Made by a program: the position numbers and the translations under genes. A stretch of 64,000 nt of DNA from a virus (Duplodnaviria; Caudoviricetes), in IMG/VR virus record IMGVR_UViG_2645727892_000011, positions 2,667 through 66,666 of that record. The stretch is one strand, 5' to 3'. Below, one piece after another: positions 24,674 through 43,515 of this stretch. A model generated the notes under the pieces. That model had not been told where the DNA came from. It made no database searches and was given only the letters and a program-made list of their open reading frames with translations. The first letter of the stretch is position 1. Each line of letters opens with the position of its first letter.

Positions 24674-25702
24674 GTGAACGAAGCTCAAAAACTCTTGGCA
24701 GCAGCCTTTGCAGGCGAATTGGATCTGGATGCGGATGCTTCCGGGTCTTCTGGCGTTTCTGCACCCGAAGGCGCGGCCGCCCCGGCAAATGCCGAGAGCA
24801 CCCAGGCAGCGATTGAAGCTGCCGCCACAGCCACCGCAGCAGGCACTGCCGCAAACGCATCGGCTCAGGAAGAGCACGAAGGCGCGCCCATTGCCAGCAA
24901 GTCCGGTGGTTACACCATTCCCTATGAAAAGCTGACAGAGGCACGCACCGCGCGCGACTCGGCTATTGCCGAGCGCGACCAACTACGCGCCCAGCTGGAG
25001 CAGATGACGGCCGCACAGGCTGCCAATCTGCAGCAAGCCCAGGCCGAAGCCCAAGCCCGTGCGGATGCCGGGAAGGCACCGACCCAGGCCGACCAGAACC
25101 TGGCAGCGGCCAAGAGCCTGGTGGACGGTGGCGCTGACGCCTCTCTGTTCGGGAGCTTTTCCGAAGAAGACATTGCAGCCGGCATTAACAAGCTGGTTGC
25201 TGATCAAGTCGCCGCGCGAGTGGAGGCCGCATTAGCACCCCAACGCGAGGCGCAAGCCCGTGAGCAGGCCGTGACGGCAGAGCAGTTGCACGCCCAGAAG
25301 ATTCTGGACGCGCACAAGGATGCCTTTGAAGTCTCTGAATCCAAGGAGTTCGCCAGCTGGAAGTCTGGTCAGCCTGGATACATGCAAGCCGCCATCGACC
25401 GCACCCTGCAAGCGGGTACCGCCCAGGATGTGATTGAGCTGCTCGGCCAGTTCAAGCAGTTCCATGCGGGCACGGCCGGCGCGGCGGCTGGTGATCCCAC
25501 GGCCGAAGCAGTGGCCAAGGCCCTGGCCAACGCCAAGACCGAGCCGCCCGTGAGCCTGTCGAGCCTGCCCGGAGCGGCAGCTGCGGGCGCCACGGAGGCT
25601 GAGCGCGTGATGGAGTTGGCCGGCGACCCAGCGGCCCTGCTGGCGTACATGCAAAGCCTGCCGCCCGAGCGTCAGATGCGATTGATGAATAGCGTGGTGT
25701 AG
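24674..25702 (+). CDS. Scaffolding protein
   Basis: Acidic, Ala-rich coiled coil between portal and capsid; TIPYEKL..AR. Confidence 0.75.
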   Translation: MNEAQKLLAAAFAGELDLDADASGSSGVSAPEGAAAPANAESTQAAIEAAATATAAGTAANASAQEEHEGAPIASKSGGYTIPYEKLTEARTARDSAIAERDQLRAQLEQMTAAQAANLQQAQAEAQARADAGKAPTQADQNLAAAKSLVDGGADASLFGSFSEEDIAAGINKLVADQVAARVEAALAPQREAQAREQAVTAEQLHAQKILDAHKDAFEVSESKEFASWKSGQPGYMQAAIDRTLQAGTAQDVIELLGQFKQFHAGTAGAAAGDPTAEAVAKALANAKTEPPVSLSSLPGAAAAGATEAERVMELAGDPAALLAYMQSLPPERQMRLMNSVV

Positions 25703-27158: not shown

Positions 27159-27635
27159 ATGGCCACCGTGACCAACTCTCAAAAGCACCGCAACCAACTC
27201 GGTGCGACTCCCTGGGGCAACCTCAATGTCCTGCATTTCATCCTGAAGACGGGCGCCAATGGTGGCGCGCTGGACGCTGACTCCAATGTGCCTTTGGCCG
27301 TCGGAGACAAGGTGCGTCTGGGCGTGCTGCCTGCCGGCTCCACGCTGGTGGACTCCGCTGCCATTGTCTCTGTAGGCCTGACCGCGACAGTCAAGGGCGA
27401 TCTGGGCTTTGAGTATGTGGACGGCGTGGACGACGCCAAGGTGCCCCAGGACGCAGCCTACTTTGGCGCGGCTCTGGATCTGGCCGCGGCAGCGCGTCTG
27501 CGCAATGCCACGACCAAGGCGCCGGTGACGCTGCCCAAGGATGCATTTCTGGTGCTGACCACTTCGGGCGCGGCCAATGCCAAGGCCGCCCGCGTCGATG
27601 TGGTGGTGCAGGCCATCTCCACCGGCGCCCTGTAA
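27159..27635 (+). CDS. Capsid decoration/cement-like protein
   Basis: GDKVRLG.LPAG...D; directly after the capsid gene. Confidence 0.65.
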   Translation: MATVTNSQKHRNQLGATPWGNLNVLHFILKTGANGGALDADSNVPLAVGDKVRLGVLPAGSTLVDSAAIVSVGLTATVKGDLGFEYVDGVDDAKVPQDAAYFGAALDLAAAARLRNATTKAPVTLPKDAFLVLTTSGAANAKAARVDVVVQAISTGAL

Positions 27636-27707
27636 AGAGCGCTCCCAGGATGCGGGCCTGCCTTCGGGTAGCGCCCGCATTCGTCCATCTGAATACTCCC
27701 CAGCATC

Positions 27708-28208
27708 ATGAACTTTGTACGCATTACCTATACCGGCCGCAAAATCTACCGCGACCGCGCCACTGGCCACATCTGGCAGCCCGAAGAGGAGCGCCTGGTG
27801 AGCGAGGCCATCGCCAAGCCGCTGCTCAAGTTTGTGGAGTTCAAGCGCACTGCAGACCTCAAGCCCGCGGCTTCTGAACAGCAGCAACTGGGCCAGGAGC
27901 AGACCGGCACAGAAGGCCTGGAACTGGGCGCGATGCTGACTGCAGATCAAAGCAGCGACCCGTCCAATGCACAGAAACCCGAGCTCAGCGAGCAAGAGAT
28001 TGCAGCGCTCGAGCAGCAAGCGCTGGACGACAAGGCCAAGGAAGTGGACGACCAGCGCGAAGCCATGTTGATCACCGTGCAAGGCATGAACAAAACAGCG
28101 CTTACCGAGTACGCCAAGAAGTACGACCACGCCTTTGACGCCAAGGTCAAGGTGGACGACATGCGTATCACCGTCAACGGCCTGATTCACCAGTTCGGGG
28201 TGCGCTGA
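27708..28208 (+). CDS. Virion-module hypothetical protein
   Basis: GC3-rich ORF; MNK.AL.EYA..Y short helical repeat. Confidence 0.65.
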   Translation: MNFVRITYTGRKIYRDRATGHIWQPEEERLVSEAIAKPLLKFVEFKRTADLKPAASEQQQLGQEQTGTEGLELGAMLTADQSSDPSNAQKPELSEQEIAALEQQALDDKAKEVDDQREAMLITVQGMNKTALTEYAKKYDHAFDAKVKVDDMRITVNGLIHQFGVR

Positions 28209-28882
28209 TGAACCTCGAGGACCTGATTGCCTCTTTCCGCGATGACTCCACCGACAAGCTGGAGCCCTATCTGTGGGAAGACGACACCGTGACCCGCTGG
28301 CTCAATGAAGCCCAGGACGAGGCTGCCGTGCGCGGCCGTCTGCTGCTCGATGACAGCACGCCGGCGGTGACCACCATAGCGGTGAATGCGGGTCAGGCCT
28401 CGTATCAGCTCCACGCCAAGGTTTATGAAATCGCGCATCTGCACTGGCAGCCGAGCGCGGCGGCCCATCGTGGCAAGGCCGTGGATCTGGTGACGCGGGA
28501 ATGGCTGGACCGCCAGCACCCCGACTGGCGCGTGCGCATGGACTGCGATGCGATGTATGCCATCCAGACCGAGGGCGCGCTGCGCCTGGTGCCCACGCCG
28601 CGCGAGGCCGGGGTGCTGACGCTAGAGGCCTACCGCCTGCCGCTCAAGCCCCTGGCCAACGATCCCGACAAGCCGGAGATCCACGCGGCCAGCCACCCCT
28701 ATTTGGTGTATTGGGCACTGCACCGAGCTTTCAGTCAGCCTGATAGCGACGGGTTTGACCCGCAGCGCGCGGCCACGGCCGAGGCGGCCTTTACCGGCTA
28801 CTTTGGCGCGCGGCCAGATGCGGATCTGCGCCGCGCCACTCGCCACGATGTTCCCCAGGTCAACGCGACCTACATTTTTTAA
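28208..28882 (+). CDS. Head-tail adaptor protein
   Basis: LI..FR....D...PYLW.D......LNEAQ.EA..R; PEI....H..LV.WAL.RAFS..D. Confidence 0.75.
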   Translation: MNLEDLIASFRDDSTDKLEPYLWEDDTVTRWLNEAQDEAAVRGRLLLDDSTPAVTTIAVNAGQASYQLHAKVYEIAHLHWQPSAAAHRGKAVDLVTREWLDRQHPDWRVRMDCDAMYAIQTEGALRLVPTPREAGVLTLEAYRLPLKPLANDPDKPEIHAASHPYLVYWALHRAFSQPDSDGFDPQRAATAEAAFTGYFGARPDADLRRATRHDVPQVNATYIF

Positions 28883-28890
28883 GGTGCCGC

Positions 28891-30657
28891 ATGTTCGGAC
28901 TGTCCAAACCCATCCCCAAAGACAAGGGCGCGAAGCTGGCACAGGCCCAGAACCAGGCACCCGACAGCATTCCCGGCATGTTCAAACCGGGCGAATTCGT
29001 ACTGCCGCCCGATACTGTGCATGCGATGGGCGGTAAGCAAGCACTCCAAGGTGTGGTGGATGCCACGCATACGCCTGTGGCTGCATACGGTCTGAATGCG
29101 CCGCGCGCCAGCAGTTCGCAATCCAAGGCTGAGCCACAGTTGGGGCTCAAGCCCGAAGTGTTCTTTGCCAACGGCGGCGCCCCAGAGGACCAACTGCCTG
29201 GGCTGGGCCTGAAGCCGAGCGCGGCTCCCAGCCCCAGTAATACCTTCCCAGGCAACCGCCTGCCGGGTAACAGCGGATTCAGCAGCGCGCCACCCAGCGC
29301 GCCAGTGGTCAGTCCTACACCAGCGCCAGCCGGCATGACGGACGGCCAGCGCGCTGATGCTTTGGCTCAGATTCCAACCGGCGGGCCGAAGGCACCCGCT
29401 GCAGATGGTTCGCAGGACTCTTGGAGCAACACCGAAGCGGGCCGCAATATTGGCAATGCCGTGGCTTCCCTGCCCGGGCTGGGCGGTGTTGGCCGTGTTG
29501 CATCAACTGGCGGCGCAATCAGCCGCGGCCTCAACGCGGCATCCACCGCAGTGAATAACGCCGGCCGTGCGGCAAATGCAGTTCCAGCTATTGGTGCAGG
29601 CCTCTATGGCAGCGCTTCGCCGGCAGCGGCTGCATCCGTGGCAGCCACACCTCCTGCGACTTTTCGCGGTTCCGCCAATCCCGCTCTTGCGGGCTCAGCA
29701 GGCCCTACGACCTCTGCAGACTCAGCGGCAGAAACGCCGAGCAACCAGGTGATGGACGGCGTGTACAGCCATGGGCGCGGACAGTACAGCGATCAAGCCA
29801 GCGGCATGGGTTTTCCGGCTGGATTCACTGGCAAGCCCAATGCACGGAATTTGGCTGCAGCCGACAACCTTGCCGCTTCCAATGCGGCCCCGGCTGCTGC
29901 CGGCGGCACCACCGATGAGGGGGGCTTTGGTCTGCGCGCGCCATCCGTGGCGCACAGCGGCAATGACTGGGCGGCGCGCCAGCGGCTCAAGAATCTGGAG
30001 ACTTCGGCCAGCTCGATCATGAATACCCAGCGCTGGGGTGGCAAAGGTGCGGCCAGCAACCCGGCAGCGCAGAACTTCTTGGACGCAAGTCGCGCCGACC
30101 TGGCTGCGCAGGGCAAAGTGCCTGATTTTCAGATGCGTACCAATGAAATCAATGCCGGCCTGCGCCGTGCGGCCATGGCCGAGGCTGGAGCAGACCGCCG
30201 TGCACAGGGACAGATCGGCCTGGGGCTGGGGCAGTTGGCACTCGGTGCCCAGCGCAACGAACTGGATGCCCGACGAGTCGGCAGCGATGAACGTCTGCGC
30301 GCGCCGCAGATCCGAGCGGCCGAGCGCCTTGGGCAGCTGCAGGAGGCATACATCAACGCCAAGACTCCCGAAGAGCAGACTGCGATTGCAGGCCAGATTC
30401 GTGCCTACTCAGGCAAGAACGAGGACGAATGGCAGGCTGTCGCCCTGCAAGGCGGTACAGATGCGGCAGGCAACAAGACCGAGGGCATGCTGGCAGCTGT
30501 CAACAAGCGCAATGGTGAAATGAGGCGGATGGGGGCGCAGCAGCCGTCTGCCGGAGTCGTCATCACCAATGACGCTGCAGGCAGAGCTGTCTTTGCTCAA
30601 CTTCCACCTGGGTCCACGTACACAGGCCCGGATGGCAAGCAGTACAAGAAGGACTAG
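28891..30657 (+). CDS. Internal virion / ejection protein
   Basis: DSIP..F.PGEFVLP.D.V motif; Ala/Gly-rich; C-terminal LPPGSTYTGPDGK; lies before the giant protein. Confidence 0.65.
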   Translation: MFGLSKPIPKDKGAKLAQAQNQAPDSIPGMFKPGEFVLPPDTVHAMGGKQALQGVVDATHTPVAAYGLNAPRASSSQSKAEPQLGLKPEVFFANGGAPEDQLPGLGLKPSAAPSPSNTFPGNRLPGNSGFSSAPPSAPVVSPTPAPAGMTDGQRADALAQIPTGGPKAPAADGSQDSWSNTEAGRNIGNAVASLPGLGGVGRVASTGGAISRGLNAASTAVNNAGRAANAVPAIGAGLYGSASPAAAASVAATPPATFRGSANPALAGSAGPTTSADSAAETPSNQVMDGVYSHGRGQYSDQASGMGFPAGFTGKPNARNLAAADNLAASNAAPAAAGGTTDEGGFGLRAPSVAHSGNDWAARQRLKNLETSASSIMNTQRWGGKGAASNPAAQNFLDASRADLAAQGKVPDFQMRTNEINAGLRRAAMAEAGADRRAQGQIGLGLGQLALGAQRNELDARRVGSDERLRAPQIRAAERLGQLQEAYINAKTPEEQTAIAGQIRAYSGKNEDEWQAVALQGGTDAAGNKTEGMLAAVNKRNGEMRRMGAQQPSAGVVITNDAAGRAVFAQLPPGSTYTGPDGKQYKKD

Positions 30658-31319
30658 TTGAGAGGGGTGGAGCCTCTTTTCCACCACTCTTTGTCGCCAC
30701 CTTGAGCGTCGAGCTGACCCGTGAAAGGGGTCAAGCCGCTATTCTGGGTTTTGTACTCGCTCATAAGACGAATGATCTGCTGCGTGGTTCCGCTTGTCAG
30801 GATTTTTGCTTTGGCTTTGTCATTGACCCACCAGGCCTGAAAGCTTTTGCTGGCAAAAAGTGCATCAGCATCCGGATGCGCAGCATAAATCTTCCGGTAG
30901 TGGGTCTCGACATTCAAAAGCTGCTCGTCATTTTGATAGGTGTGCTGACCGAGGATTTCGGCAGGTAGTCGATACCGCATGCACATGTCTGTGCTTCCGT
31001 TCGACTTGGTGTAAAGGCAATCACATGACTGCTTGATCAGCGCGGCTGCTGGTTGCCATGCCGTGTCTTTCGTTTTTTCCAGGGTGCATTGATCAGGAGA
31101 TGTGTTGTTGAGAAGTCCGCGCGCAGAGCCACGACGGATTTCGTAGAACTTATCGGGAAATCGTTGGCTGCATATGTTGAGCGCTGCTGTGTACGCCATG
31201 GCATTTTTGACACCAGCCATGTTTTCAACGACACATGTCGCGAAGTTTGCTGCTTGCGCTTGCGCGGCCACCAGCGCCAGCAGTGCGCCACCTAGCATCG
31301 CTCTCATCTTCTTTTGCAT
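30654..31319 (-). CDS. Secreted moron protein: Cys-rich domain, scaffold-like domain and ejection-protein-like tail
   Basis: Signal peptide ending AQA-A; AGGAGG RBS; alignments given in findings. Confidence 0.8.
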   Translation of the reverse strand: MQKKMRAMLGGALLALVAAQAQAANFATCVVENMAGVKNAMAYTAALNICSQRFPDKFYEIRRGSARGLLNNTSPDQCTLEKTKDTAWQPAAALIKQSCDCLYTKSNGSTDMCMRYRLPAEILGQHTYQNDEQLLNVETHYRKIYAAHPDADALFASKSFQAWWVNDKAKAKILTSGTTQQIIRLMSEYKTQNSGLTPFTGQLDAQGGDKEWWKRGSTPLN

Positions 31320-31427
31320 GTTCCCTCCTGCAAAGGGACTGTAGCAGAGCAGATTGATTTCATTGGGTATTTGCGCCTCTCAATCGCGGCATCGATTGAG
31401 CTTCACATAGGCCTGGGCAGCACAGAC

Positions 31428-32258
31428 TCAGCGGGCGGCTTGTGCGGCTTGCAATTGACGCTGCCGGAAATCAAGCCAGCTCTGACGTTTGGCTGTGATC
31501 CTGCGCACGATGCGAGGCCATTCCTGTTCGGCGAACCCTTTTCCGGCGTAGGCGATCGCTTCAGCCGGAATTGCATCAAGTGCGTCGAGCTGGAAGTTCA
31601 TGAAGCAATAGCGCCCGGCTTTGTATTCCGCTAGCTCCGCGATTTGACGTATCGCTTTAGCTACCTGTGCGGGGTCTTCAGCAGATTGGAGCAGAGTCAG
31701 AAGGAACTTATTGGCTATAGCAATCATCCACTGCGCTTGCAGGGGGCCATTGCCCAAGCGCTTGGAGGCGATGAGTTCGAGATTTGCGAAGCGACTCTCC
31801 AGGCAAAGCAGTGGATGCATGACTTGCAGGCGCCCACCCTCGAGCTCCACAGAGACGGCGAATTTGACAATATCCTCAACTGCTAAACCGGCGATGGCTC
31901 TCAGAAAGTCCATCAGAAGCACACGCTTCCCATCGCGTAGCAAATACACGATCGCCGCGCTGGGCGTTGCATCAAAGTCTCCAGCAAGGTGAAGTTCTAC
32001 GTCGGAGGGCGCGCCTAGGCGGCTGGATAGCCACTTGGCATCCAACTTTCCACCAAGCCAATCCGCGTCCTCGGTAAGAGTTTGGTGCGCGCCCAGAGGG
32101 GAAGGCACGTCAAAAATGATTCCCCAAACGGCAATAGCCTGACCGCCTACAAGAATGAGACGGTCAGGATCTTCTGCAATCTTAGAGGTTACAAACTTGA
32201 AGTCTTCTACAGTAAAACTGTCGAGGCCCTGCTTTTTCAGCAGTTCGCGAAGGATCAT
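31428..32258 (-). CDS. Nucleotidyltransferase-fold protein (AbiEii/MenT-like)
   Basis: LILVGGQA...LTEDADW (GG...DxD), LMDFL; lower GC. Confidence 0.7.
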   Translation of the reverse strand: MILRELLKKQGLDSFTVEDFKFVTSKIAEDPDRLILVGGQAIAVWGIIFDVPSPLGAHQTLTEDADWLGGKLDAKWLSSRLGAPSDVELHLAGDFDATPSAAIVYLLRDGKRVLLMDFLRAIAGLAVEDIVKFAVSVELEGGRLQVMHPLLCLESRFANLELIASKRLGNGPLQAQWMIAIANKFLLTLLQSAEDPAQVAKAIRQIAELAEYKAGRYCFMNFQLDALDAIPAEAIAYAGKGFAEQEWPRIVRRITAKRQSWLDFRQRQLQAAQAAR

Positions 32259-32270
32259 GCTGCGGAGAAC

Positions 32271-32480
32271 TTAGAGCTTGGGCCAGGCGATAACGCGCGC
32301 AGAAATGCCCATAGGCATGAAGCTGGCAAAGCTGCGGACGTCCTCATCGGGCTGAAGGTGTTTTGCAGACGCAGAGATCTTGCGCGCTGCATTTTTTGCG
32401 GCCCCCAATGAATAGTGACCTGGCGCGTGCTTGAGTCCGCGCGAACGGCGAACAACATCGCTAGCAATAAATTTGGCCAT
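32271..32480 (-). CDS. Small basic protein upstream of the nucleotidyltransferase
   Basis: 69-aa ORF ending 12 nt before the NTase start; promoter TTGCAA-N17-TAATAT upstream. Confidence 0.5.
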   Translation of the reverse strand: MAKFIASDVVRRSRGLKHAPGHYSLGAAKNAARKISASAKHLQPDEDVRSFASFMPMGISARVIAWPKL

Positions 32481-32667
32481 GGCTAAAGAGGGCGTGAAAC
32501 CAAAGAGGTGGTGCGGGAATATTAGCACCACTATTTGCAACTTGCAATTTGAGCTACCTAAAAAAGCCTTTGAAATCAATCTGTTAAAACATTTTACTCG
32601 AGTTGCTGTAAAAAAATACCTTTGTAAAACAAGCGCTTAGGACTCGAACCTAAGGCGGTCTGTGATA

Positions 32668-32685
32668 CCCCTTCTAGGGCTCGAC
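32668..32685 (+). promoter_or_regulatory. Late-promoter motif copy 3
   Basis: CCCCTTCTAGGGCTCGAC-N19-TGTCAT-N6-ATG. Confidence 0.65.
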
Positions 32686-32716
32686 AAAGCTCCCTAGCTT
32701 GAGGTGTCATTGGCTC

Positions 32717-33069: not shown

Positions 33070-36000
33070 ATGGCAAATACCAATGACTGGTGGAAAAGCG
33101 GCGCCACCCCTGTTGAACAGCCGTCGACAACGCAGGATGACGGCTGGTGGAAGGCTGGTGCTAAAGAGATAGCGCCTGAGTCACCATCGCGTGGCGTGAA
33201 GGGCTGGGCGCAGGACATTGCTGGAGTTGCAATCAACAGCGCCATCGGCATCCCTGAGGCAGTTGTCGGTTTGGCGGACATCCCCACTGGCGGTCGTGTC
33301 GGCAAATTCCTGGAGAACCAGGGTGGTGCGGTGGGCTTCCGTCCCAAGGAAGCCAAGCAGTTCGTTAACGAGAATATCAAGTCGGACGCATCGCGTGAGG
33401 CGCGGCGCAAGTTCCAAGAGGCCGATGGCGTCGTCGACAAGGCCGTTGTGGCGGCCCAGAACCCTAGCCTAATCCTTGAGGGTGTTGGCGAATCGCTGGG
33501 CGCTATGGGCGCGGGAGGGGTGGTCTCCCGTGGTCTGATGGCCGCCACCCGCCTGGGTCAGATGGGCGCCAAGGGCGCGGCCATCGCTGGCGCTGCTGGT
33601 GAGGGTGTGGTGGGCGCTGGCTCGGCCGCAGAGCAGATCCGCCAGCAGACCGCAGACGGCGAGCTGACCGCCAAGCAGGCTGCCCTGGCCGCCGGTACCG
33701 GCCTGGCTACGGGTGCGCTGGGCTTTGCGGGCAACAAGGTTGCCAACCGCCTGGGCATTGGCGATGCCGACATGATGCTGGCCCAGGGCACCAAGGGAAT
33801 GGCCAAGGATGCCGCAGAGCGCGCCACGGCCGCAGCCGTCAATCCTCTGGCCCAGCCTGCGCAAAAGAGCATCCTGCGCCAGATGGGCGAGGGCGCGATC
33901 ACCGAGGGCGTGCTCGAGGAGCTGCCCCAGTCGGTATCTGAGCAGATCCTGCAGAACGAGGCATTGGGCAAGTCTTGGAGCGATGGCCTGGATGACGCCA
34001 TTGTGATGGGCATCCTGTCGGGCGGCGCCATGGGTGCAGGCGCGGCGGGCTATCGCGGCTTCAAGGACAAGCAAATCGATGATGCAGCGGCCAATGCCAG
34101 GAGCGCTGCAGCCAATGCCCCGGGCGCTACCCCCGGTCAAGATCAGGCCGCTGGTGCTGTGCCGCCCGCAGCTTGGACGACTTCGGCCGGCGCGGCAGCC
34201 AAGGTGGAGCCCGGCACGGCACCGGCATCCCCGGCCAATGCTCCAAATCTGGATTATGAAACCCTGCCAGGTGCGGCTCCCGAGGCTGTCGGCAAGGAAA
34301 TTCCCTTTGAGCGCGAGTTTGATACCGGTGGCCTGAGCCTGCAAAGCACGCAGCCGGCGGCTGTGCCCCCCGTACTGGATCACGACGTTCTGCGAGACAA
34401 AGCCGGCGTGATGATGGCGCCCCAACTGGATGCCGGCCGCATTGAGGTCGAAACCGGCCTGCATCCGCTGTCCAACGAGCAGCCACCACGCCAATGGGAT
34501 ACGGGCAATCTGAGCCTGTTGGGCGAGGGGCAGCCCCAGGCGCCGCTGAGCCAACGCATGGGCCTGGATCCGAAGGCCGGCGCGCTGTCCAAGGCGGCAG
34601 CCATGGCGGTGGATTCAGGCGCTTCCCCAGTGCTGCAGCCCCAGGCCGCTCCAGTGCTGGAGCAGCAGCAGGCCGCGCCCCAAGTGCCGGCCGGAGTGGA
34701 TCCGGATACCGGCGAGATATCGCTGCAGTCCCAGATGGACGAGCTCAAAAGCCGCATTGCCTTCATGAATCAGCAGGGCGCGACGCAGGGCTGGGACGGC
34801 AATAGGGCTGCCCAGCGCAATGCGCTGCAGACCCAGCTCACCCGGCTGGAGCTGCAGGCCGCCGGCGGGCAGGACCGCGGCGCCTCGACCGCCGGCGCGC
34901 CAGCACCGGTGCAGCTGACCGGCATCAACCAGATCCTGGCCAAGCAGGTCCCTGACATGAACGAGCAGGAGTTACAGCAGGCCATCGCCCATTACGGACC
35001 CAACCACAAGCGCACCAAGAAACTCGAAAAAGCACTCCAAGCGCTTGCGCAAAAACCGCTAACAGCTATTGAATCAGGAGCGAATGGCAATGTCTCTCAA
35101 GCCGATCAAACCCAGCAAGGCAGCGCGCAACCTGCGCAAGCAGGAGCAGCGAAAGCTGGCCAAGATGCAGGCCAAGGGGTAGGCAATGGCACCACCCCAG
35201 CTGCGAACCTTGGAGCGCAAGAGCAGGGCGCGAGCCTTGCGAAAGCTCAAGCGCAAGTCTCGGAAGCAGCCGGCGCGGCCCAGGAAGCCGTAGGCAAGGC
35301 GGCGCAGATCGCGCGTGAAGGCAATGCAGAACGTGAAGCCCAGCGCCAGCGACAGCTCGATGCCAGCGAACGCTGGACCCGCATGACCACGGTTGAGCGC
35401 CAGGCCGTGACGGCCACCGCGCCAGGCCTGAACCCCATCGCACGCAAGAACCTGCACACCCGTGCATGGCCGGACATTGGCGAGAAGATCCGCGACAAAC
35501 TGCTGGATTCGCTGGTGGAGCCGCTTGTGGCGCCAGCCGGTCAAGGGCCAGATGCTGCACAAAGCGTAGCAAATGCAGCGCCTCCTGCTGTCTCCGCAGA
35601 GGCGCCGGCGAAGCCTGCCGCGCAGCCCGTAGGCGATGAAAAGCCGTTCGCGGCAGAGACTGGCACGCTGGGGATTCCACGCGCCGAGATGCCCCAGGTG
35701 CCTACGGCCAACCATGGCGGCCTGGTCAAGCACCTGAATGCCCAGGGCATTGCCCACGAAACCACGACCGTGGACGCGGCCCAGCTCAAGCCTACCCAGG
35801 CTGAATATTCGCCGTCCAAGGTGGAGGCAGCCAAGAGCGCGACCGGCGACCGCGCGGTGATCGTGTCGAGTGATGGCCACATCATTGACGGCCACCACCA
35901 GGCAGTCGCGGCAGCCGAGGAAGGCAAGCAGGTCAAGGCCATTGTGCTGGATGCACCAGTGGAGCAGGCTCTTGCAGCGGTGAAGGCTTCGCCAAGCGCG

Positions 36001-39000
36001 AATGCCGCTTCTGTGCAGGAGCAGCCTGATAGTGGCGACTTTCCTATGTCCGAAGCTGTGCAAAGCTACAGCGGCATTTCCCACTCAGGCCGCAGTCGCG
36101 CCGATGGGGACAAGCAGGCCTTTGACAAGTTCATGGAGTCGGCACGTTCAGCTGCTGAAAAGCTCGCCACCAGCGATGCCCAGCGCGATGCCTTGGCAGC
36201 AGCTACAGAAAGCCTGCGCGCTGACTACCTGAAGCAGTACCGATCCCTGATGAGTGTGCGAGCAGGCGCTTACAGTGGGTTTGTTGCTGGGCGCGGCAAC
36301 CTCAACAGCAAGCAGGCCAACAGCCGCAATAGCGCGCTGGACAAGGCCATGGAGCGCTTTGATAGCTGGGTCGGTGACAACGCGGATCGCGTGAGCAAGG
36401 CCGTGCTGGCCGCGCGCACCCCTGAGCAGGTAAAGGCTGACCGGGACGCAGTAGCCGCGAAGAGTAAGGAGAAGGCCGACAAAAAGGCCGCTGACCTCAA
36501 GGCAACGCTGCTCAAGTTCCTGAGCTTCAAGAGCGGCGACAACATGCCCTATGGCAAGAGCGCCATCATTACCAAGGTCAGCTATGACCGTGACGGCTAC
36601 CCCAGCAGCCTGACTTTCAAGATGGCCGATGGCTCGCCGTTGACTGATGACAGTTTGGACCTGTTGGGCACACTCAAGGACAAAGGCGAAACCTTGGAAC
36701 AGGCCAAGGCCCGGATTCGTGGGCTGGTCGATGAGGTGCGTGCTGAGAATCCGGAGCTGACCAAAGGCATCGGTGCGATGCGCGCGGCGGCATCCGCCAA
36801 AGTCGCCAAGTCAGCCACGGAGCCTGCACCATCGCCAGCAGCAAGCTCTTTCCTTGAACGTCATAACAAGATCGAGGACGGCATCAGCGCTGGCACGCTG
36901 GCGCTGGATGACTACAAGAGCACCTTTGCCGAGCTGGAATCTAACCAGGATGCGGTGCTTTCCGAGCTGCAGCAATTGACAAAGGACAAGCTGCTGCGCG
37001 CCGGAGGCCCGGCGTTTGCCTATCGGATGGGGAGCGAGAAGAAGGACGCCATTGTCCTGGCTGCCTATCAAAAGATGCTGGATACCTACGCGCTGGGGCG
37101 CAGCTATGGGCCAGGCATTCAATTCCTGTCTGCAGCCAATATTGCCAAGAACAAGGCCGACAAGGCCCAGGCACTGCGCGAGCTGGTGGGCAACACCACG
37201 GCCGAAGACCTGGCTGCCCGGGCTGCTGAAATCAAGGCGCTGCGCGAGGAATTCAAAGCACAGCGGACTGCAGAGGCAGAGGCGCTGGCCAACCCCAAGA
37301 CCTTGCAGGACTTCCGCGGCTTCATGAGCCATTGGGTCGATCAAGGGGAAACCAGCCAAGCGGCCTATCTGCGCCTGACACCCGAGCAGCGCCAGCAGTT
37401 TGATGCCCTGGAGGCCGAGCAGACGAAGGACCAACGCGAGGCAGAGAAGCGCCGGGCCCGGGTCACGGTGCAAAGCGCCGGCAACACCACGGCCGGCGAA
37501 CTCATCGCCACCAAACACACCAAGCATGGGCATGACCTGTTTGTGGTGCAGCTGGCCGAGCGCGTTGAGCGCGATGCTTACGACACCCTCAACGGCAGCG
37601 CCAAGCGCCTGGGCGGCAGCTACAGCAGCTATCGTGGCAATGGCGCGGTACCGGGCTTTCAGTTCCGTACCCGTGAAGCGGCCGAGGCGTTCCAGAAGCT
37701 GGTGGCCGGCGATACAGCCCAGGCCCAGGATCTAGCCAACCAGCGCCGCGACGCTTTCGAGGATGACAAGAGCCAGACCACGGTAGAGCGCTTGCGCGCG
37801 ATGGCGGAAGCCTTGGACCAAGGTGCCGACGAGCAGCTTGGGGCCGACCGCAAGACCAATACCGCCCGCCGGGCACGCATGGCCAATGCGGCCGAGGACG
37901 CAGCGCGCGGCAGCAAGGCCTACGCAGGCACCATGCGCAATCTGGCGGATGCCATCGAGGCGGACAAGGTCCAGTTCTTGGATGGTGTTCGCACCAAGAC
38001 GCAACTGTCTCAATTGCTGCAGGCTCTGGGATCGGCCAAGGTGCAGCAGTTGATGGCCAAGCATGGCTCTTGGGCCGCAGTCGAAGAGAACAAGCACGCG
38101 CCAATGGATGCCCAGACGGTGGACTTTGCCGAGTTTCCCCGCTTCTCTATGTACCGCAGCGACCTTGCCGGCCTGGCGCGCCAGTTGCTGGAAATTGAGG
38201 GTGGCAAGAAGATGGGCGCGGCTTTGGCCCGTCTTGCGGATGATGTGACTGACGCCTACACGAGCTGGGCGAAAGACAACCTGCTCAGTGTGAGCCACTT
38301 CGGCAACAAGACCAAGGGCGGCTTTGCAGACTACGCCAGCAAGGATCTGGCCGAGCGCGCCATTAAGCGTAGTGGTCTGGTGGGCAAAGCCGTGGTCTTG
38401 CAGATCAAGCGCGGCCAAAACCGCGTGATTCTGTCGCCCGGTGAGGCGATGCAGCAGGGGCTATGGCAGGGTGATGGCGACAAGCGCATTCAACTGGGCA
38501 TGCCGTTTGTGGAGGATCTTGCCAAGCTGGGCAAGCGCAAGGGATCCAAGGCGCTGGCCCTGCCTTGGCAGCTGGAGAGCACACTGGAGAAGCGCCAGCG
38601 CCTGCAGCGCATGGGCATTCAAACCCCCGCCGAATTCCGCAGCGCCCTGCGCGAGCTGCAGAACTTGCGCCAGGAGCGTGCCGAGCCTGACCGCATCAAG
38701 CAGCTCGAGCGTTCCATGGTGGGGCGCGCCAATGATGGCCTGGACTTCTTCCCAACCGGCGCGGCAGCGACAGCGGCAGCCATCGATGCGGCGGAGATTC
38801 AGCCGGGTATGGAGGTTCTGGAGCCACACGCAGGCATGGCGCACATTGCTGATGCCATTCGTGAACAAACCGGCGTGGAGCCTGATGTGGGTGAGCTGTC
38901 CAACGCCCGCCGCGAGCTGCTGGAGGCCAAAGGTTACAACCTGGTGAGCTCGGATTTCCTGGAGCTGCAAGGTAAGCAGTACGACCGGATCGTTATGAAC

Positions 39001-42000
39001 CCGCCGTTTTCTGACGGGCGCGACATTCAGCATGTGCAGCATGCCTATGGTCTGCTCAAGCCCGGCGGCCGTCTGGTTGCTATCGTGGGAGAGGGCGCAT
39101 TCTTCCAGTCCAACAAGCGCGCCGAGGGCTTCCGCGAGTGGCTGGACGAGCGTGGCGCCACAAATGAAAAGCTGCCCGATGGCTCATTCATGGACCCGAG
39201 CCTGCCGGTTAACACCAGCGTTTCTGCCCGTATGGTGGTTATCGACAAGCCTGCCACCGAGTTGGTCACGGATGGAGATAGCACGGATGCGCCCAGCTTC
39301 CGCCGCCAGGAGGCCGAGCAATTGGCCGGCGCGGATTTTGATGTGGAGAGCTTCCTGCAGGGCATGAACGAGGGCCAGCCAGCTGCTGCCGTAGCCGCTC
39401 AAGCACCGACCACGAACGTGCGCCCCAGCTATTCGCCGGCGGCCCGCGCCGAGGCGGTGCGCGCGGTCAAGGGCACGGCCGATGCCATTCGGCAGGCCTG
39501 GGCCAACGGGCCCGAGGTGATCGTGGCTTTTGACATGCATGACTCGGTGGTGCCCGAGAGCGCGCGGCGAGCTGACCTGAAGCAGCGCAGCGGCGGCGCC
39601 CGGGGCGCTCCGGAGGGCTTTTACTATCAGGGCAAGGTGTACCTGATGGCGTCCAAGCTCAAGACGCCCAACGATGCTGCGCGCGTGCTGTTCCATGAGG
39701 CCTTGGGCCACCATGGCCTGCGCGGTCTATTTGGCAAGGATCTGGGCCTGATTCTGAATCAGGTGGCCACCATGCGTAAGGCTGATGTGGATGCGAAGAT
39801 CGCGGAATACGGTCTGCGCCGCGTCAATCGCTTGGACCGCCGCACGGCCGCCGAGGAAGTGCTGGCCGAGATGGCGCAGAACACGCCTCAGATTGGCTTT
39901 GTGCGCCGTGCCGTGGCCGCAATCCGTACCTGGCTGCGCACCAATGTGCCGGGCTTCAAGTCGTTGGCGCTGACGGATGCTGAGCTGATTCGCAACTTCA
40001 TCCTGCCGGCGCGCGCTTGGGTGGAGCGTGGTGGTCCCGATGGAGGCAACAAGGCCGATGCGACTTTCAGCCGAGAAGCCGCGCCCGAGCTGCGCATCGC
40101 CACCAACTTCACCGAAGCGCGCGAGGCTGCCAAGGCGTTTCAGGGCAAAGCGTTGCTCAACGCGGAAACCGGCCTGGAGGCCCGTGTATCTCGCAATACG
40201 CTGGACAAGATGCTGAGCCGCAAGGCGGTGGAGCAATCCACCAATGCGCGGGATCAGTCCATGGCTGTTGCCAATGTGGACCGACTCTATGAATCAGCAA
40301 TGTTCGGGTGGAGTAAGGAGGACCGCGATAGCAACTCCAACCTGAAAGCGATTCATCGCTTCTTTGCCCCCATCGAGGTGGATGGGCGCATGCTGCTGGC
40401 GAAGTTGACGGTCAAGGAAACCGTAGACCCCACTCACGGTAACCCGCTGTACACGGTCGAAACCGTGGAGTTCAACGAAGAAACCCCCGCAGCTCAGTGG
40501 GTGGACGCATCTGCCAAGGCCGATGGCCAAGACCTGACTTCCATCCGCTCTGCGGGGGCACTGGTAAGTCTAGCCGAAGGTCTGGAGCAGCGCAATGCGA
40601 CCGGCGGTGACAGTGCTACGGACGAGCCCATGTTCAGCCGCTCGCGCTTCGCGGACCTCAAGGACAGCGCCCTTGACCAGCTGACCAAGACCTTTACCCA
40701 CGAGGGCAAGGTGTCGCTCTGGGACAAGTCCGTGGGCACCATGCGCCACCTGGCAGAGCGCGCACCAAGCTTCAAGCCTGTTTACGAGTCGGCCCAGCAA
40801 AACATCGACGATGTGAGCATGCTGGCCAACGATGCGGCCGATATGGCGCCGCGCATCTTGCCGCGTGTGGAGTCGCTGGGCGACCTCAAGAAAAAGCCTG
40901 TCTCTGCTGCCGACAACAAGGCCGTGGCCCGCCCGCTCTTTGAGGGCACGCTGATCTGGGCGCGCGACGAGAACGGCAAGCCGACCCTGGTCGACGACCT
41001 GCAAAAGCGCTATGCCAATCTGTCGGCCCACAACAAGGCCGCCATGCTGCTCAAGCACGGCAAGATTGATGCGGGTGTGCTGGCCATGTGGCAAGGCCTG
41101 CCCGCGCAGCAGTACGAAAACATGATCAACTCCCGTTTTGAGAGCAAGATTCTCAAGGCTGGCGTAGTGTGGAGCGATAACGAGCTGCAATCTCAGTTCG
41201 GCGCGACCGCTGATCAAATCAGCCTGTACCGCGAGGCGCGCGCGGCCATTGATCGCTCCATCGACATGACGGCTCGCACCGACATGCTGCGCGTGGTGGG
41301 TGAGAAGTACGAGCCCATGCGCGATGCGGTGCTGGCGCAGCCCTCCGTGGAAGCCGCGGCCCAGTTGCTGCTGGACACCCTGGAGCAGGACGCCAAGGCC
41401 GACCCGGACTCGCGCGACCGCCTGGCGGGCTATATGCAGCTGATCAATCGCCGCCTGGACACGGCCGTGGACCTGCAGCAGGGTGGCTATGCCCCACTGT
41501 CACGCTTTGGCCGCTACACCGTGGATGTGGTCGACGCCAACGGCGAGCGCCTGTACTTCGGCATGTACGAAACCGCGCGCGACTCCAACCGGGCCAAGAT
41601 GCAACTCGAGCACGAGTTCAAAGGCGCGACCGTCACCACGGGCACCATGAGTGCCGAGGCCTACAAGCTGTTTGCCGGTGTGACTCCCGAGACTCTCGAG
41701 CAGTTCGGGGAGATGCTGGGCCTCAAGGCCGAGGGCAATGAAGCCCAGGACAAGGCTTTTCAGGAGTTCCTGAAGCTGACCAAGAACAACCACAGCGCCA
41801 TGAAGCGGTTGATTCACCGCAAGGGCATCGCCGGTTTTAGCGAGGATGTGGGGCGAGTGGTGGCGAACTTTGTCTACTCCAACGCACGTGCCGGGGCCAT
41901 GGGCCTGAATGCGGGCAAGATGGAAACGGCCATCGGCAAGATCCCCAAGGAGCAGGGCGAGCTCAAGGATCTGGCCATGGGCCTGCGCGACTACATCCGC

Positions 42001-43515
42001 GACCCGCAGGAGGAAGGGCAGGCCGTGCGCGGCATGCTGTTTGCCCAGTATCTGGGTGGCTCCATCGCTTCGGCCTTTGTGAATACGACGCAGCCCTTTG
42101 CAGTCACGCTGCCCTGGCTGAGCCAGTACGGTGGCATGAAGAAGGCCGGTGCGCAGCTGGCCCGCGCGCTCAAGGACATGGGAAGGTCCGTCGCTGATAA
42201 GGGCTTCAAGTACGAGGCCGACCTAGCCAAGGCCCTGCAATCAGCCGAGGATGATGGCGTGGTCAGCCCCCAGGAAATCCACCAACTGATGGCCCAGGCC
42301 CGCGGCGCTGGCATGCTGCGATCGGGCGACGGCACCAAGGCGGGTGATCTGCGCGCCAAGGCCGGCAATCTGTGGGAGCAAGGCAAGGTGCTCTGGGGTC
42401 AGCCCTTCGCACTGGCTGAGCAGTTCAACCGCCGCAGCACGTTTATTGCGTCCTACCGCATTGCCAAGGAGCAGGGCATGGCCGACCCGGCAGCGTTCGC
42501 ACGCAAGGCCGTGCTGGAAACGCAGTTCGTCTACTCCAAGGCCAATAAACCCAAGTGGGCGCGCGGTGCGGTGGGCGGCACGCTGTTCACCTTCAAGACC
42601 TACTCGGTCAGCTATCTGGAGCTGATGCAGCGCATGTGGAACCAGGGCGGGCCAGAAGGCAAGCGCGCCGTGGGCTGGGCCCTGGCCATGCTGCTGCTGA
42701 TGAGCGGCGCCGGCGGCGTGCCCTTCATGGAGGACGCCGAGGACCTGATCGATGGCGCGGGCCAGATGATGGGCTACAACATCAGCGCCAAGCAATGGCG
42801 CAAGGAGCTGCTGGCCAACGTGGTGGGCAAGGAACTGGGTGAGTTCATGGAGCAAGGCCTGTCAGGCCTGCCGGGCGCGCCCATCGATGTGTCCGGGCGC
42901 TTGGGTATGGGCAACCTGCTGCCCGGTACCGGCCTGTTCCTCAACAAGCCCAACCGCGAGCGGGATCTGATGGAGATTGTGGGCCCTGCCGGGGATCTGG
43001 TGGCGCGCGGCTTCACCGGTGCGCGCAAGCTGTTGGGAGGCGATGTGGCCGGCGCGGCGCTGGAAGTCTCGCCCACCGCAGTGCGCAATCTGGCCAAGGG
43101 CGCCGATATGACAGCCACGGGCATGTACCGCGATACCAAAGGCTACAAGGTGATCGACACGACGCTGGCTGAAGCCGCAGCCAAGGCCATCGGCTTTCAG
43201 CCCAAGAGCGTGGCCGAGGTACAGGAGGCCAATAGCTTTATGCAACGCAGCAAGTCGTTCTATACCCAGACCAGCAGTGAAATCAAAGCGCAGTGGGCAG
43301 ACGCTCTATTCCGCAAGGATGAGGCCGCCGTGCAGCGGGTGCGCGAGCGCCTGGCCGACTGGAACCGTGACAACCCCGAGCAGCCTATCGTGGTGAAGAT
43401 GCCCGATGTGTGGAAGCGCGTGCGCGAGATGGGTAAGGATCGCAGCGACCGCATTGCCGATACTGCGCCCAAGGCGCTGCGGGCGCAAATGCACAAAGAG
43501 ACCGCCGCCTTGTGA
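33070..43515 (+). CDS. Giant polyvalent ejection protein (ParB-like, amino-MTase, metallopeptidase, LPD3-like and PLxRFG domains)
   Basis: 3481-aa ORF; IIDGHH (~35881), EPHAG...VMNPPF (~38820-39010), HEALGH (~39694), YAPLSRFG (~41490). Confidence 0.88.
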   Translation: MANTNDWWKSGATPVEQPSTTQDDGWWKAGAKEIAPESPSRGVKGWAQDIAGVAINSAIGIPEAVVGLADIPTGGRVGKFLENQGGAVGFRPKEAKQFVNENIKSDASREARRKFQEADGVVDKAVVAAQNPSLILEGVGESLGAMGAGGVVSRGLMAATRLGQMGAKGAAIAGAAGEGVVGAGSAAEQIRQQTADGELTAKQAALAAGTGLATGALGFAGNKVANRLGIGDADMMLAQGTKGMAKDAAERATAAAVNPLAQPAQKSILRQMGEGAITEGVLEELPQSVSEQILQNEALGKSWSDGLDDAIVMGILSGGAMGAGAAGYRGFKDKQIDDAAANARSAAANAPGATPGQDQAAGAVPPAAWTTSAGAAAKVEPGTAPASPANAPNLDYETLPGAAPEAVGKEIPFEREFDTGGLSLQSTQPAAVPPVLDHDVLRDKAGVMMAPQLDAGRIEVETGLHPLSNEQPPRQWDTGNLSLLGEGQPQAPLSQRMGLDPKAGALSKAAAMAVDSGASPVLQPQAAPVLEQQQAAPQVPAGVDPDTGEISLQSQMDELKSRIAFMNQQGATQGWDGNRAAQRNALQTQLTRLELQAAGGQDRGASTAGAPAPVQLTGINQILAKQVPDMNEQELQQAIAHYGPNHKRTKKLEKALQALAQKPLTAIESGANGNVSQADQTQQGSAQPAQAGAAKAGQDAGQGVGNGTTPAANLGAQEQGASLAKAQAQVSEAAGAAQEAVGKAAQIAREGNAEREAQRQRQLDASERWTRMTTVERQAVTATAPGLNPIARKNLHTRAWPDIGEKIRDKLLDSLVEPLVAPAGQGPDAAQSVANAAPPAVSAEAPAKPAAQPVGDEKPFAAETGTLGIPRAEMPQVPTANHGGLVKHLNAQGIAHETTTVDAAQLKPTQAEYSPSKVEAAKSATGDRAVIVSSDGHIIDGHHQAVAAAEEGKQVKAIVLDAPVEQALAAVKASPSANAASVQEQPDSGDFPMSEAVQSYSGISHSGRSRADGDKQAFDKFMESARSAAEKLATSDAQRDALAAATESLRADYLKQYRSLMSVRAGAYSGFVAGRGNLNSKQANSRNSALDKAMERFDSWVGDNADRVSKAVLAARTPEQVKADRDAVAAKSKEKADKKAADLKATLLKFLSFKSGDNMPYGKSAIITKVSYDRDGYPSSLTFKMADGSPLTDDSLDLLGTLKDKGETLEQAKARIRGLVDEVRAENPELTKGIGAMRAAASAKVAKSATEPAPSPAASSFLERHNKIEDGISAGTLALDDYKSTFAELESNQDAVLSELQQLTKDKLLRAGGPAFAYRMGSEKKDAIVLAAYQKMLDTYALGRSYGPGIQFLSAANIAKNKADKAQALRELVGNTTAEDLAARAAEIKALREEFKAQRTAEAEALANPKTLQDFRGFMSHWVDQGETSQAAYLRLTPEQRQQFDALEAEQTKDQREAEKRRARVTVQSAGNTTAGELIATKHTKHGHDLFVVQLAERVERDAYDTLNGSAKRLGGSYSSYRGNGAVPGFQFRTREAAEAFQKLVAGDTAQAQDLANQRRDAFEDDKSQTTVERLRAMAEALDQGADEQLGADRKTNTARRARMANAAEDAARGSKAYAGTMRNLADAIEADKVQFLDGVRTKTQLSQLLQALGSAKVQQLMAKHGSWAAVEENKHAPMDAQTVDFAEFPRFSMYRSDLAGLARQLLEIEGGKKMGAALARLADDVTDAYTSWAKDNLLSVSHFGNKTKGGFADYASKDLAERAIKRSGLVGKAVVLQIKRGQNRVILSPGEAMQQGLWQGDGDKRIQLGMPFVEDLAKLGKRKGSKALALPWQLESTLEKRQRLQRMGIQTPAEFRSALRELQNLRQERAEPDRIKQLERSMVGRANDGLDFFPTGAAATAAAIDAAEIQPGMEVLEPHAGMAHIADAIREQTGVEPDVGELSNARRELLEAKGYNLVSSDFLELQGKQYDRIVMNPPFSDGRDIQHVQHAYGLLKPGGRLVAIVGEGAFFQSNKRAEGFREWLDERGATNEKLPDGSFMDPSLPVNTSVSARMVVIDKPATELVTDGDSTDAPSFRRQEAEQLAGADFDVESFLQGMNEGQPAAAVAAQAPTTNVRPSYSPAARAEAVRAVKGTADAIRQAWANGPEVIVAFDMHDSVVPESARRADLKQRSGGARGAPEGFYYQGKVYLMASKLKTPNDAARVLFHEALGHHGLRGLFGKDLGLILNQVATMRKADVDAKIAEYGLRRVNRLDRRTAAEEVLAEMAQNTPQIGFVRRAVAAIRTWLRTNVPGFKSLALTDAELIRNFILPARAWVERGGPDGGNKADATFSREAAPELRIATNFTEAREAAKAFQGKALLNAETGLEARVSRNTLDKMLSRKAVEQSTNARDQSMAVANVDRLYESAMFGWSKEDRDSNSNLKAIHRFFAPIEVDGRMLLAKLTVKETVDPTHGNPLYTVETVEFNEETPAAQWVDASAKADGQDLTSIRSAGALVSLAEGLEQRNATGGDSATDEPMFSRSRFADLKDSALDQLTKTFTHEGKVSLWDKSVGTMRHLAERAPSFKPVYESAQQNIDDVSMLANDAADMAPRILPRVESLGDLKKKPVSAADNKAVARPLFEGTLIWARDENGKPTLVDDLQKRYANLSAHNKAAMLLKHGKIDAGVLAMWQGLPAQQYENMINSRFESKILKAGVVWSDNELQSQFGATADQISLYREARAAIDRSIDMTARTDMLRVVGEKYEPMRDAVLAQPSVEAAAQLLLDTLEQDAKADPDSRDRLAGYMQLINRRLDTAVDLQQGGYAPLSRFGRYTVDVVDANGERLYFGMYETARDSNRAKMQLEHEFKGATVTTGTMSAEAYKLFAGVTPETLEQFGEMLGLKAEGNEAQDKAFQEFLKLTKNNHSAMKRLIHRKGIAGFSEDVGRVVANFVYSNARAGAMGLNAGKMETAIGKIPKEQGELKDLAMGLRDYIRDPQEEGQAVRGMLFAQYLGGSIASAFVNTTQPFAVTLPWLSQYGGMKKAGAQLARALKDMGRSVADKGFKYEADLAKALQSAEDDGVVSPQEIHQLMAQARGAGMLRSGDGTKAGDLRAKAGNLWEQGKVLWGQPFALAEQFNRRSTFIASYRIAKEQGMADPAAFARKAVLETQFVYSKANKPKWARGAVGGTLFTFKTYSVSYLELMQRMWNQGGPEGKRAVGWALAMLLLMSGAGGVPFMEDAEDLIDGAGQMMGYNISAKQWRKELLANVVGKELGEFMEQGLSGLPGAPIDVSGRLGMGNLLPGTGLFLNKPNRERDLMEIVGPAGDLVARGFTGARKLLGGDVAGAALEVSPTAVRNLAKGADMTATGMYRDTKGYKVIDTTLAEAAAKAIGFQPKSVAEVQEANSFMQRSKSFYTQTSSEIKAQWADALFRKDEAAVQRVRERLADWNRDNPEQPIVVKMPDVWKRVREMGKDRSDRIADTAPKALRAQMHKETAAL

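Follow-up and report, generated by a model that had tools for sequence, protein, structure and literature searches.

Known barriers to phage DNA entry

Superinfection exclusion at the step of DNA entry is known, and its molecular logic is mostly obscure. The nearest precedent for the gene studied here is SieA of phage P22, which blocks DNA injection; its escape mutations fall in C-terminal parts of the ejection proteins gp16 and gp20, both of which are highly mosaic among relatives (PMC10883804). Our subject is ORF221, a gene for 221 amino acids (aa) in a window of 64,000 nucleotides (nt), which is part of the virus record IMGVR_UViG_2645727892_000011 (66,666 bases). Like SieA, ORF221 is prophage-encoded and would target the entry step via ejection proteins. 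We put a probability of roughly 0.6 on the reading that it is a periplasmic peptide decoy, which would give superinfection exclusion by capping a docking site on the putative ejection protein p588 encoded next to it. The two systems are set apart by their descriptions: the available passages of PMC10883804 report no mimicry of virion proteins by SieA and an equal specificity between SieA types, whereas ORF221 is predicted to be soluble and periplasmic, with a specificity that can be read from its tail motif.

Llp of phage T5 and Ltp of the Streptococcus thermophilus phage TP-J34 are small exported phage lipoproteins that stop entry at the envelope (10.64898/2026.03.26.714494, PMC3952083). ORF221 differs from both in that it has no lipobox and copies a phage peptide, and Llp binds the host receptor FhuA. 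Ltp reportedly acts on the tape measure protein. The HXS effector HxsA is also periplasmic and arrests phage DNA entry; unlike ORF221 it is described as host-encoded, matured by radical S-adenosylmethionine enzymes, proposed to bind DNA electrostatically, and broad-spectrum rather than motif-specific (PMC13128918).

The building blocks of the locus can be compared in the same way. The N-terminal domain of ORF221 is assigned to the four-cysteine family VF_A0006, to which ORF221 adds a scaffold-like domain and a tail with two motifs. With the scaffolds of phrog_479 it shares one helical domain of about 63 residues, while it lacks the rest of the scaffold and is predicted to be exported. The protein that is mimicked is a giant polyvalent protein. 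Polyvalent proteins are thought to enter the cell with the phage DNA, and the giant protein likewise has LPD3 and a methyltransferase-like region and lies among virion genes (Iyer et al. 2017, PMC5512222); the available passages of that source describe no doubled N-terminal motif, no pairing with an upstream protein and no decoy.

A literature search on the family names and on exclusion through mimicry or a decoy found no description of this kind. Set beside these systems, which make exclusion at entry as such familiar, the new element is the copying of a virion peptide with a specificity readable from sequence. If the reading is true, it would offer a first specificity code of an exclusion system that can be read from sequence, pinpoint a docking contact within the poorly understood ejection machinery of F116-like podophages, account for the cassette-like swapping of that contact and assign a function to VF_A0006, a protein family without one.

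The tail of ORF221 copies the N-terminal motif of the giant protein

An earlier note on this DNA had described ORF221 as an antisense gene with its own ribosome-binding site between two ejection-protein genes, and its position and ribosome-binding site were borne out by the open reading frame (ORF) listing and the sequence: the gene starts with ATG, with GGAGG 6-7 nt before it. It is antisense to the structural operon and convergent with the 588-aa gene p588 (28891-30657), with which its stop codon shares a 4-nt overlap, and it lies 1.75 kb upstream of the giant gene, to which it is also antisense. Four parts make up the protein: the Sec signal peptide, a VF_A0006 (PF28034) domain with six Cys, a scaffold-like helical domain and a disordered tail. 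The features needed for the comparison are as follows.

30654..31319, minus strand: ORF221, exported decoy candidate (ORF listing, ribosome-binding site, 15 homologues at E <= 1e-61, 14 of them with PF28034)
31251..31319, minus strand: Sec-type signal peptide, residues 1-23, predicted cleavage between AQA and AN (n-h-c and -3/-1 rule)
30966..31250, minus strand: VF_A0006 (PF28034 / NF041602) Cys-rich domain, residues about 24-118 (six invariant Cys)
30738..30926, minus strand: scaffold-like helical "AHPDAD" domain, residues 132-194 (BLASTP, hhalign, AlphaFold2)
30708..30734, minus strand: inner foreign-type tail motif LTPFTGQLD, residues 196-204 (matches PFxGxLD-type giant proteins)
30657..30689, minus strand: terminal own-type tail motif EWWKRGSTPLN, residues 211-221 (match to giant repeat 1 in 22/24 nt and 6/10 aa)
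33070..43515, plus strand: giant polyvalent, putatively ejected protein, 3,481 aa from ATG 33070 (LPD3, PF18798, E 2.3e-19)
33085..33117, plus strand: giant N-terminal motif repeat 1, DWWKSGATPVE (DNA and protein match to the ORF221 tail)
33142..33171, plus strand: giant N-terminal motif repeat 2, GWWKAGAKEI (sequence; two repeats in every motif type tabulated)

We regard the giant protein as a polyvalent protein because it combines LPD3 with a weak methyltransferase match. By homology with all relatives its gene most likely starts at ATG 33070 (MANTNDWWK...) and not at GTG 33052. The nearest cultured relatives are the F116-like Hollowayviruses of Pseudomonas, and the homologue of the giant protein in one of them, H66, has a RefSeq note that reads "verified by mass spectrometry as part ..." (the text of this note is incomplete).

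The earlier note had reported a match of 24 nt between the end of ORF221 and the start of the giant gene. It was located exactly, at 30663-30686 on the minus strand and 33088-33111 on the plus strand, with 2 mismatches, and 0 such matches occurred in 100 shuffles. At the protein level, EWWKRGSTPL of ORF221 aligns with DWWKSGATPV of the giant protein.

We compared this pair with the corresponding pairs in loci of related phages and prophages, which are given L-numbers here; related loci share motif types, so that counts by type are the fairer measure. In prophages of Delftia, Acidovorax and Comamonas the decoy gene keeps its syntenic position, with 50-57% identity to ORF221 in the core, and among the homologues the tail beyond the scaffold-like domain is hypervariable. 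Locus by locus, the decoy tail carries a short motif that is found twice at the N-terminus of the locus's own giant protein. Nine motif types were distinguished in the first set: NPFxDPxYG, SEIxxxLxxAP, PWxxY, SYEDAF, PFxGxLD, WWK, FDPxTA, WLDxxST and DRFGG. This set comprised 36 loci with an intact tail, 24 of which also had a giant N-terminus, giving 18 distinct pairs. Judged by reading, tail and own giant protein have the motif in common in 17 of the 18 pairs; the summed self-score was 842, compared with 434 +/- 50 after permutation, and none of 100,000 permutations reached it. When only the terminal 16 aa of the tail were used, the best score fell on the own-type giant protein for 9 of 9 types.

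A second set was collected prospectively by searching viral contigs with four short VF_A0006-only proteins chosen for their tails. Three of the four queries returned loci, 41 in total, while the fourth (P0162) found no locus in the viral contigs searched. Fifteen of these loci had a giant N-terminus, which gave 12 distinct pairs. It turned out that the own giant protein ranked first in 12/12, with ties counted as first (4 were unique best matches and 8 tied with near-identical giant proteins of the same type), and again 0 of 100,000 permutations reached the observed score. Counted by type, which is fairer, 7/7 were correct, including three new types (DWExG, DLFDELGI and NFFDxF). For the second-set loci without a giant N-terminus, the tail type agrees with the catalogued type of the p588 C-terminus. 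Many of the short VF_A0006-only family representatives likewise end in a catalogue motif: one occurs within the last 45 aa of 23 of 149 representatives, compared with 0.62 +/- 0.81 in shuffled tails. The co-variation of tail motif and giant N-terminus, which the earlier note had left to be looked for among homologues, is thus present in both sets.

These comparisons also bear on a by-product of recombination, in which the peptide would be without function and tail and giant N-terminus would form inverted repeats at the borders of a mobile island, either homogenised by gene conversion or serving for inversion. The window would suit such an origin, as its repeat is identical in 25/30 nt between tail and giant gene without any synonymous difference (0/6) and its copies stand in inverted orientation on either side of a variable island; in L034, L035 and L058, moreover, the orientation of the gene is opposite. 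We nevertheless consider it very improbable. Many synonymous differences are seen in other loci: in most of them, 4 to 6 of 8 to 11 identical residues are written in different codons (e.g. 6/11, 5/10 and 6/9), and because of this, recent gene conversion does not explain the match between tail and giant protein. The junctions of island replacement (31356 and 33048) lie in 5' untranslated regions and not at the repeats, the same motifs are found on unrelated carriers and inside tails, no recombinase is a constant neighbour, and no inversion joints were seen in the RNA-library contigs. The mimicry is real and is maintained at the protein level.

Two contigs of a soil RNA library (run X6) depart from the window near this place. 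One, from a relative 90-95% identical, leaves the window at 33072, after the giant ATG, and continues with SKNPFADPNF, an NPF-type start; in the other, 31356-33048 is replaced by 1,140 other letters.

The p588 C-terminus varies with the same motif types

A third element of the locus follows the motif type, namely the C-terminus of p588, which has two feature rows.

28891..30657, plus strand: p588, putative ejection protein (phrog_11341), upstream (ORF listing, phrog match)
30562..30654, plus strand: type-specific p588 C-terminal module (ITNDAAGRAVFAQLPPGSTYTGPDGKQYKKD), candidate docking site (identity within and between types)

The protein is homologous to H66 gp59 (E 1.5e-10). Over its last 30 aa, proteins of one motif type share an identity of 0.84 (n=11, minimum 0.53), as against 0.19 in comparisons across types (n=125, maximum 0.43). 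For example, the window and L019 proteins are about 35% identical by tblastn over most of their length and 33% identical over the last 110 aa, yet 25 of the 33 final residues agree. The pairing of p588 C-terminus and giant N-terminus is kept in L042, where the decoy is a truncated pseudogene, and in L034, L035 and L058, where the decoy gene lies on the other strand, away from p588. It is also found in the cultured Pseudomonas phages H66, 8P and USP_25, which have RGGYRFKGGNPADQNNWEK together with KPWEEF or KPWESF repeats, while Pseudomonas phage PA8 has a different p588/giant pair. Between L003 and L031, the terminal tail motif and the p588 C-terminus have been replaced jointly and the giant N-terminus as a separate patch, with sequence of 81-86% identity lying between the two replaced patches. 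Judged by this pattern, the p588 C-terminus is the likeliest binding target of the tail motif.

The same evidence can be set against a target in the host. The giant motif might bind a periplasmic or membrane protein of the host that is needed for entry, and the decoy tail would then compete for this envelope factor by saturating the host site. Exclusion would still result, and it would fit that the motif is doubled and lies within disordered sequence at an ejected protein's leading end, since colicin translocation epitopes resemble such leading-end disordered motifs; the mismatch of locus L004 with its p588 C-terminus, described below, would also be easier to accept. A host site, though, would constrain the motif, whereas about a dozen unrelated motifs occur within the same few host genera, even between phages that are 98.7% identical. 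Besides, the co-variation of p588 and giant protein persists with a pseudogene decoy (L042), in cultured phages in which no decoy was found, and across genera. We therefore consider a host target unlikely and keep the p588 C-terminus as the preferred one.

The giant N-terminus of F116 itself (L094, 4890-5220) is annotated unlike that of H66, with no KPWEEF repeats before the conserved EEGRG, which hints at a wrong frame or start position in the old record.

Foreign motifs, other carriers and defence genes

The inner motif of the ORF221 tail, LTPFTGQLD, had been suspected in the earlier note of mimicking the motif of a related phage, and PFxGxLD does start giant proteins of related phages. The window segment NSGLTPFTGQLD matches the start of the L017 giant protein (MANDSTLKPFSGELD; N-terminus DSTLKPFSGELD) with p = 0.002 against shuffles. 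It is among the 6 of 10 distinct inner tail segments that match giant proteins of other types at p < 0.01. Such copying of foreign-type giant proteins by inner motifs cannot be explained by a function in assembly of the phage itself.

The motifs are also displayed by other carriers. L037 encodes a transmembrane-anchored protein with NPFADPNYG in a locus whose own giant protein is of the NPF type and whose VF_A0006 gene is truncated, and in a Pseudomonas genome (L007) a membrane protein ending in SNPFGEPNYGK lies outside any recognisable structural module. The representative P0137 is a further carrier. A giant homologue was not found in the L006, L007 and L016 genomes with the query used, and such an empty result shows nothing.

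The decoy gene is often truncated, a pseudogene or absent in otherwise intact relatives. The island that separates decoy and giant gene is, in relatives, a hotspot for defence genes, known ones or candidates, and the corresponding neighbour in the window is p276, which resembles AbiEii.

31428..32258, minus strand: p276, AbiEii/AbiGii-like nucleotidyltransferase, co-oriented upstream neighbour of ORF221 (Atlas score 0.98, TM-score 0.84-0.85 to clusters so named)
Island defence genes in relatives: PDC-M02A/B (E 1e-65 and 5e-140), RmrA (8e-161), HEC-01A/B, SoFic with GNAT, M78+DUF4411, Fic
Island coordinates in relatives: L029:3707-5424, L057:5625-6707, L002:3931-5699, L031:4131-5492, L001:4208-5865, L034:5107-5544

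Scans of p276 with Pfam and PADLOC gave no match. Homologues of p276 occupy the same place in L003, L004, L005 and L030.

A defence role is also supported by the order of events, as an exported decoy would come into contact with virion proteins only upon their ejection into a cell already producing it. ORF221 could in principle be a sensor of superinfection instead of a blocker, binding the ejected proteins and giving out a signal, such as delayed lysis, for which T4 RI is a precedent, or prophage induction. The binding logic would be the same, a sensor would be well placed in the periplasm, there may be a further partner for the conserved VF_A0006 domain to contact, and lysis inhibition in N4 is the subject of a preprint. 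A sensor seems quite unlikely to us, since the protein has no output domain, its gene is found outside the lysis cassette and among defence genes, and forms of it occur outside prophage structural modules (L007). The decoy remains our preferred reading.

Short copies of the gene are available in culture. LKA5, phiC725A, F1Pa, E220, Atpa001, JBD90 and F_ET605sp, all cultured PAO1 phages, carry a short VF_A0006 copy, 96-99% identical and ending in KPWEEY, and in all it was found in ten cultured Pseudomonas aeruginosa phage records. Seven of the 10 records, those of LKA5, phiC725A, F1Pa and E220, have no coding sequence annotated at the matching position; the Atpa001 record has hypothetical proteins at this place, and those of JBD90 and F_ET605sp are without any annotation. 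The LKA5 copy (L140:3201-3548, which is 45458-45805 of the record, minus strand) is an ORF of 115 aa predicted to encode an exported VF_A0006 protein, and sits in a gap of 535 nt annotated only with predicted promoters and terminators. The LKA5 giant protein starts with two KPWEEF repeats, to which the KPWEEY tail corresponds. Because cultured P. aeruginosa phages carry the copy, bench tests are feasible and the reading is directly testable.

Predicted export and the VF_A0006 family

The signal peptide and Cys-rich domain read from the sequence by the earlier note were found throughout the family members compared. In ORF221 the putative signal peptide begins with MQKKMR, followed by a hydrophobic core and AQA before the predicted cleavage. 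The rule (n-h-c plus small residues at -3/-1) is satisfied by 16/16 members. The mature part of every one has 6 Cys, which in ORF221 are C29, C50, C78, C99, C101 and C113 of the VF_A0006 domain. Cleavage before ANFATC would place the first Cys at +6, so there is no lipobox, and the same applies to 16/16 members. By inspection, no hydrophobic segment follows the signal peptide.

NCBIfam NF041602 matches ORF221 at E 2.5e-8 with 33.6 bits, which is under its 65-bit cut-off, while PF28034 is precomputed on 14 of the 15 ORF221 homologues at E <= 1e-61, one of them 98% identical. The Pfam 38.1 name of PF28034 is VF_A0006, the libraries attach no function to this family name, and a literature search for "PF28034" or "VF_A0006" found no paper. 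A profile search of 1.84 billion representatives gave 482 relatives of ORF221 at E <= 0.001; among the relatives listed, most are putatively exported proteins of 110-135 aa and about a dozen have two domains. A local Pfam scan of ORF221 gave only a sub-threshold Annexin match, a sequence search of the PDB only chance-level matches to ribosomal proteins, and a Foldseek search of BFVD with the AlphaFold2 model nothing at E < 1.

Other family members (P0019-P0038, P0046-P0092; L061, L072, L078) have conserved Cys-loop tails of the form C..MT.ADY.ACGI.PP or C.W.T...W.C, the latter after a different helical domain. We considered C..MT.ADY.ACGI.PP as a further mimic and rejected it: among the loci examined it was found only at the C-termini of such proteins, and the Cys-loop tails had no counterpart at the start of the neighbouring large protein.

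The scaffold-like domain

The earlier note had also read the middle of ORF221 as a copy of the phage's own scaffold. The similarity proved significant, but the idea of a self-copy did not stand.

25265..25468, plus strand: homologous domain of the phage's own scaffold (24674-25702), residues 198-265 (BLASTP, hhalign)

BLASTP of ORF221 against the window scaffold gave E 4e-8 with 26/80 identical residues, and hhalign of the ORF221 family profile against that of 27 scaffolds gave 98.5% and E 2.8e-15, with residues 132-194 on scaffold residues 198-265 over 63 columns. The family of the scaffold, phrog_479, matches ORF221 at E 3.4e-4, and this match is partial, with residues 134-170 on profile positions 182-218 of 333. 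AlphaFold2 models the domain as five helices at a predicted local distance difference test score (pLDDT) of 66-85. Its identity is 33% to the window scaffold and 41-49% to scaffolds and membrane proteins of unrelated bacteria. By these sequence comparisons it is an old shared domain rather than a duplicate of the window scaffold. It is also optional: many relatives dispense with it, and the constant feature of the family is the motif tail on an exported carrier.

The domain shared with the scaffold and the place of the gene among structural genes might point to a cytoplasmic role in assembly, in which ORF221 would be a scaffold-like chaperone and retain p588 up to the loading of the giant protein into the procapsid. 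We give this hardly any credence, in view of the predicted signal peptide in 16/16 members, the six invariant Cys and the foreign motifs in the tails; the gene is antisense to the structural operon and often truncated or absent in intact relatives. Nor is its position that of a scaffold gene. The portal, scaffold (phrog_479) and major capsid genes of the window are all upstream of ORF221, which lies not between portal and capsid genes but 5 kb downstream, off the structural strand.

The scaffold was tried as the specificity partner of the motif and rejected, as scaffold subtypes A, B and C are reassorted freely with respect to motif type. The N-termini of scaffolds (window 24674-24740; L002, L009, L011 and L017) contain conserved AFAGELD, SFEGNLS and SLEGELT, which resemble the PFxGxLD giant-protein type and may do so by chance. 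In the membrane proteins L006:3158-4366 and L007:5434-6210, the scaffold-like domain stands behind a segment (LPAYQDY and IPEYQNY, respectively) that we take to read like a type IV pilin N-terminal helix.

Proposed mechanism and its weak points

Putting the parts together, we propose that the Sec signal peptide would send ORF221 to the periplasm, where the disulfide-bonded VF_A0006 domain, here joined to the helical domain shared with scaffolds, would serve as a stable carrier. The flexible C-terminal tail would display at least one short peptide copying the doubled N-terminal motif of the giant protein. In F116-like phages this giant polyvalent protein is probably ejected. Within the virion or a trans-envelope conduit, the type-specific module at the p588 C-terminus is the probable docking site of its doubled motif. 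When a phage of the same type arrives, the tail of the resident decoy would occupy the module on the ejected p588, assembly of the conduit would fail and no DNA would enter; inner motifs may extend this action to other phage types. The self-mimicry suggested by the earlier note survives in part: the motif tail copies the giant N-terminus, while the scaffold-like domain is no self-copy and the p588 C-terminus, the likeliest target, had been overlooked.

A tentative extension, for which we see odds slightly short of even, takes the whole VF_A0006/PF28034 family as a programmable display of peptide decoys. An exported carrier with disulfide bonds would present an array of short peptides, each of them copying, for a single phage type, the motif at the leading end of its giant ejected protein; the tail would amount to a list of the phages excluded, and the resulting arms race would drive the cassette-like replacement of the docking pair, that is, of the upstream protein's C-terminus and the giant N-terminus, in F116-like phages.

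Several observations weigh against the decoy reading. The p588 C-terminus abuts the decoy tail in most loci, so that linkage could explain part of the co-variation. In L004, one of the 18 pairs of the first set, the giant N-terminus differs in type from the decoy and from the p588 C-terminus. L004 is 98.7% identical to L003 over 9.6 kb, and the patch in which the two differ (around 4380-4700) starts right after the first codons of the giant gene and is nearly identical to that of L028; the patch reflects a motif swap of very recent date or else a chimeric assembly, both L003 and L004 being metagenome-assembled genomes. If L004 is a real phage, strict pairing of p588 and giant protein is not obligatory. 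For four of the 10 inner tail segments no matching giant protein is known, and the inner motifs could be fossils of earlier cassette swaps and not working decoys. The scaffold-like domain is left without an explained role, and short VF_A0006 forms do without it. Finally, the AlphaFold2 model of ORF221 is poor (pLDDT 53, predicted TM-score 0.44, with the tail at low confidence), and no PADLOC family matches ORF221 at E <= 0.1.

Surroundings of the gene

G+C content is 46-58% across 30600-32850, compared with 60-71% in the structural genes on either side. RNA-library contigs from two studies, identical to the window, map onto ORF221 and p276, which is at most a weak hint of transcription. In runs X1, X2 and X3 the contigs lie only on 30619-32703; 27000-30600 and 32719-36000 are uncovered, which counts as no evidence of silence.

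A scan of the locus for promoters and terminators gave nothing exceeding the shuffled expectation, and between 30000 and 34000 neither a tRNA nor an Rfam family was detected. The DNA of the WWK motif forms, at 30666-30685 on the plus strand, a short palindrome (GGTGGA...TCCACC) that was flagged, as the one terminator-like hairpin on this strand, immediately behind the p588 stop codon. A small ORF with a hydrophobic N-terminal segment (32699-32980, plus strand) lies just upstream of the giant gene on the same strand, and L001, L017, L029 and L052 have ORFs like it (MAHLPILILSGAL...) ahead of their giant genes.

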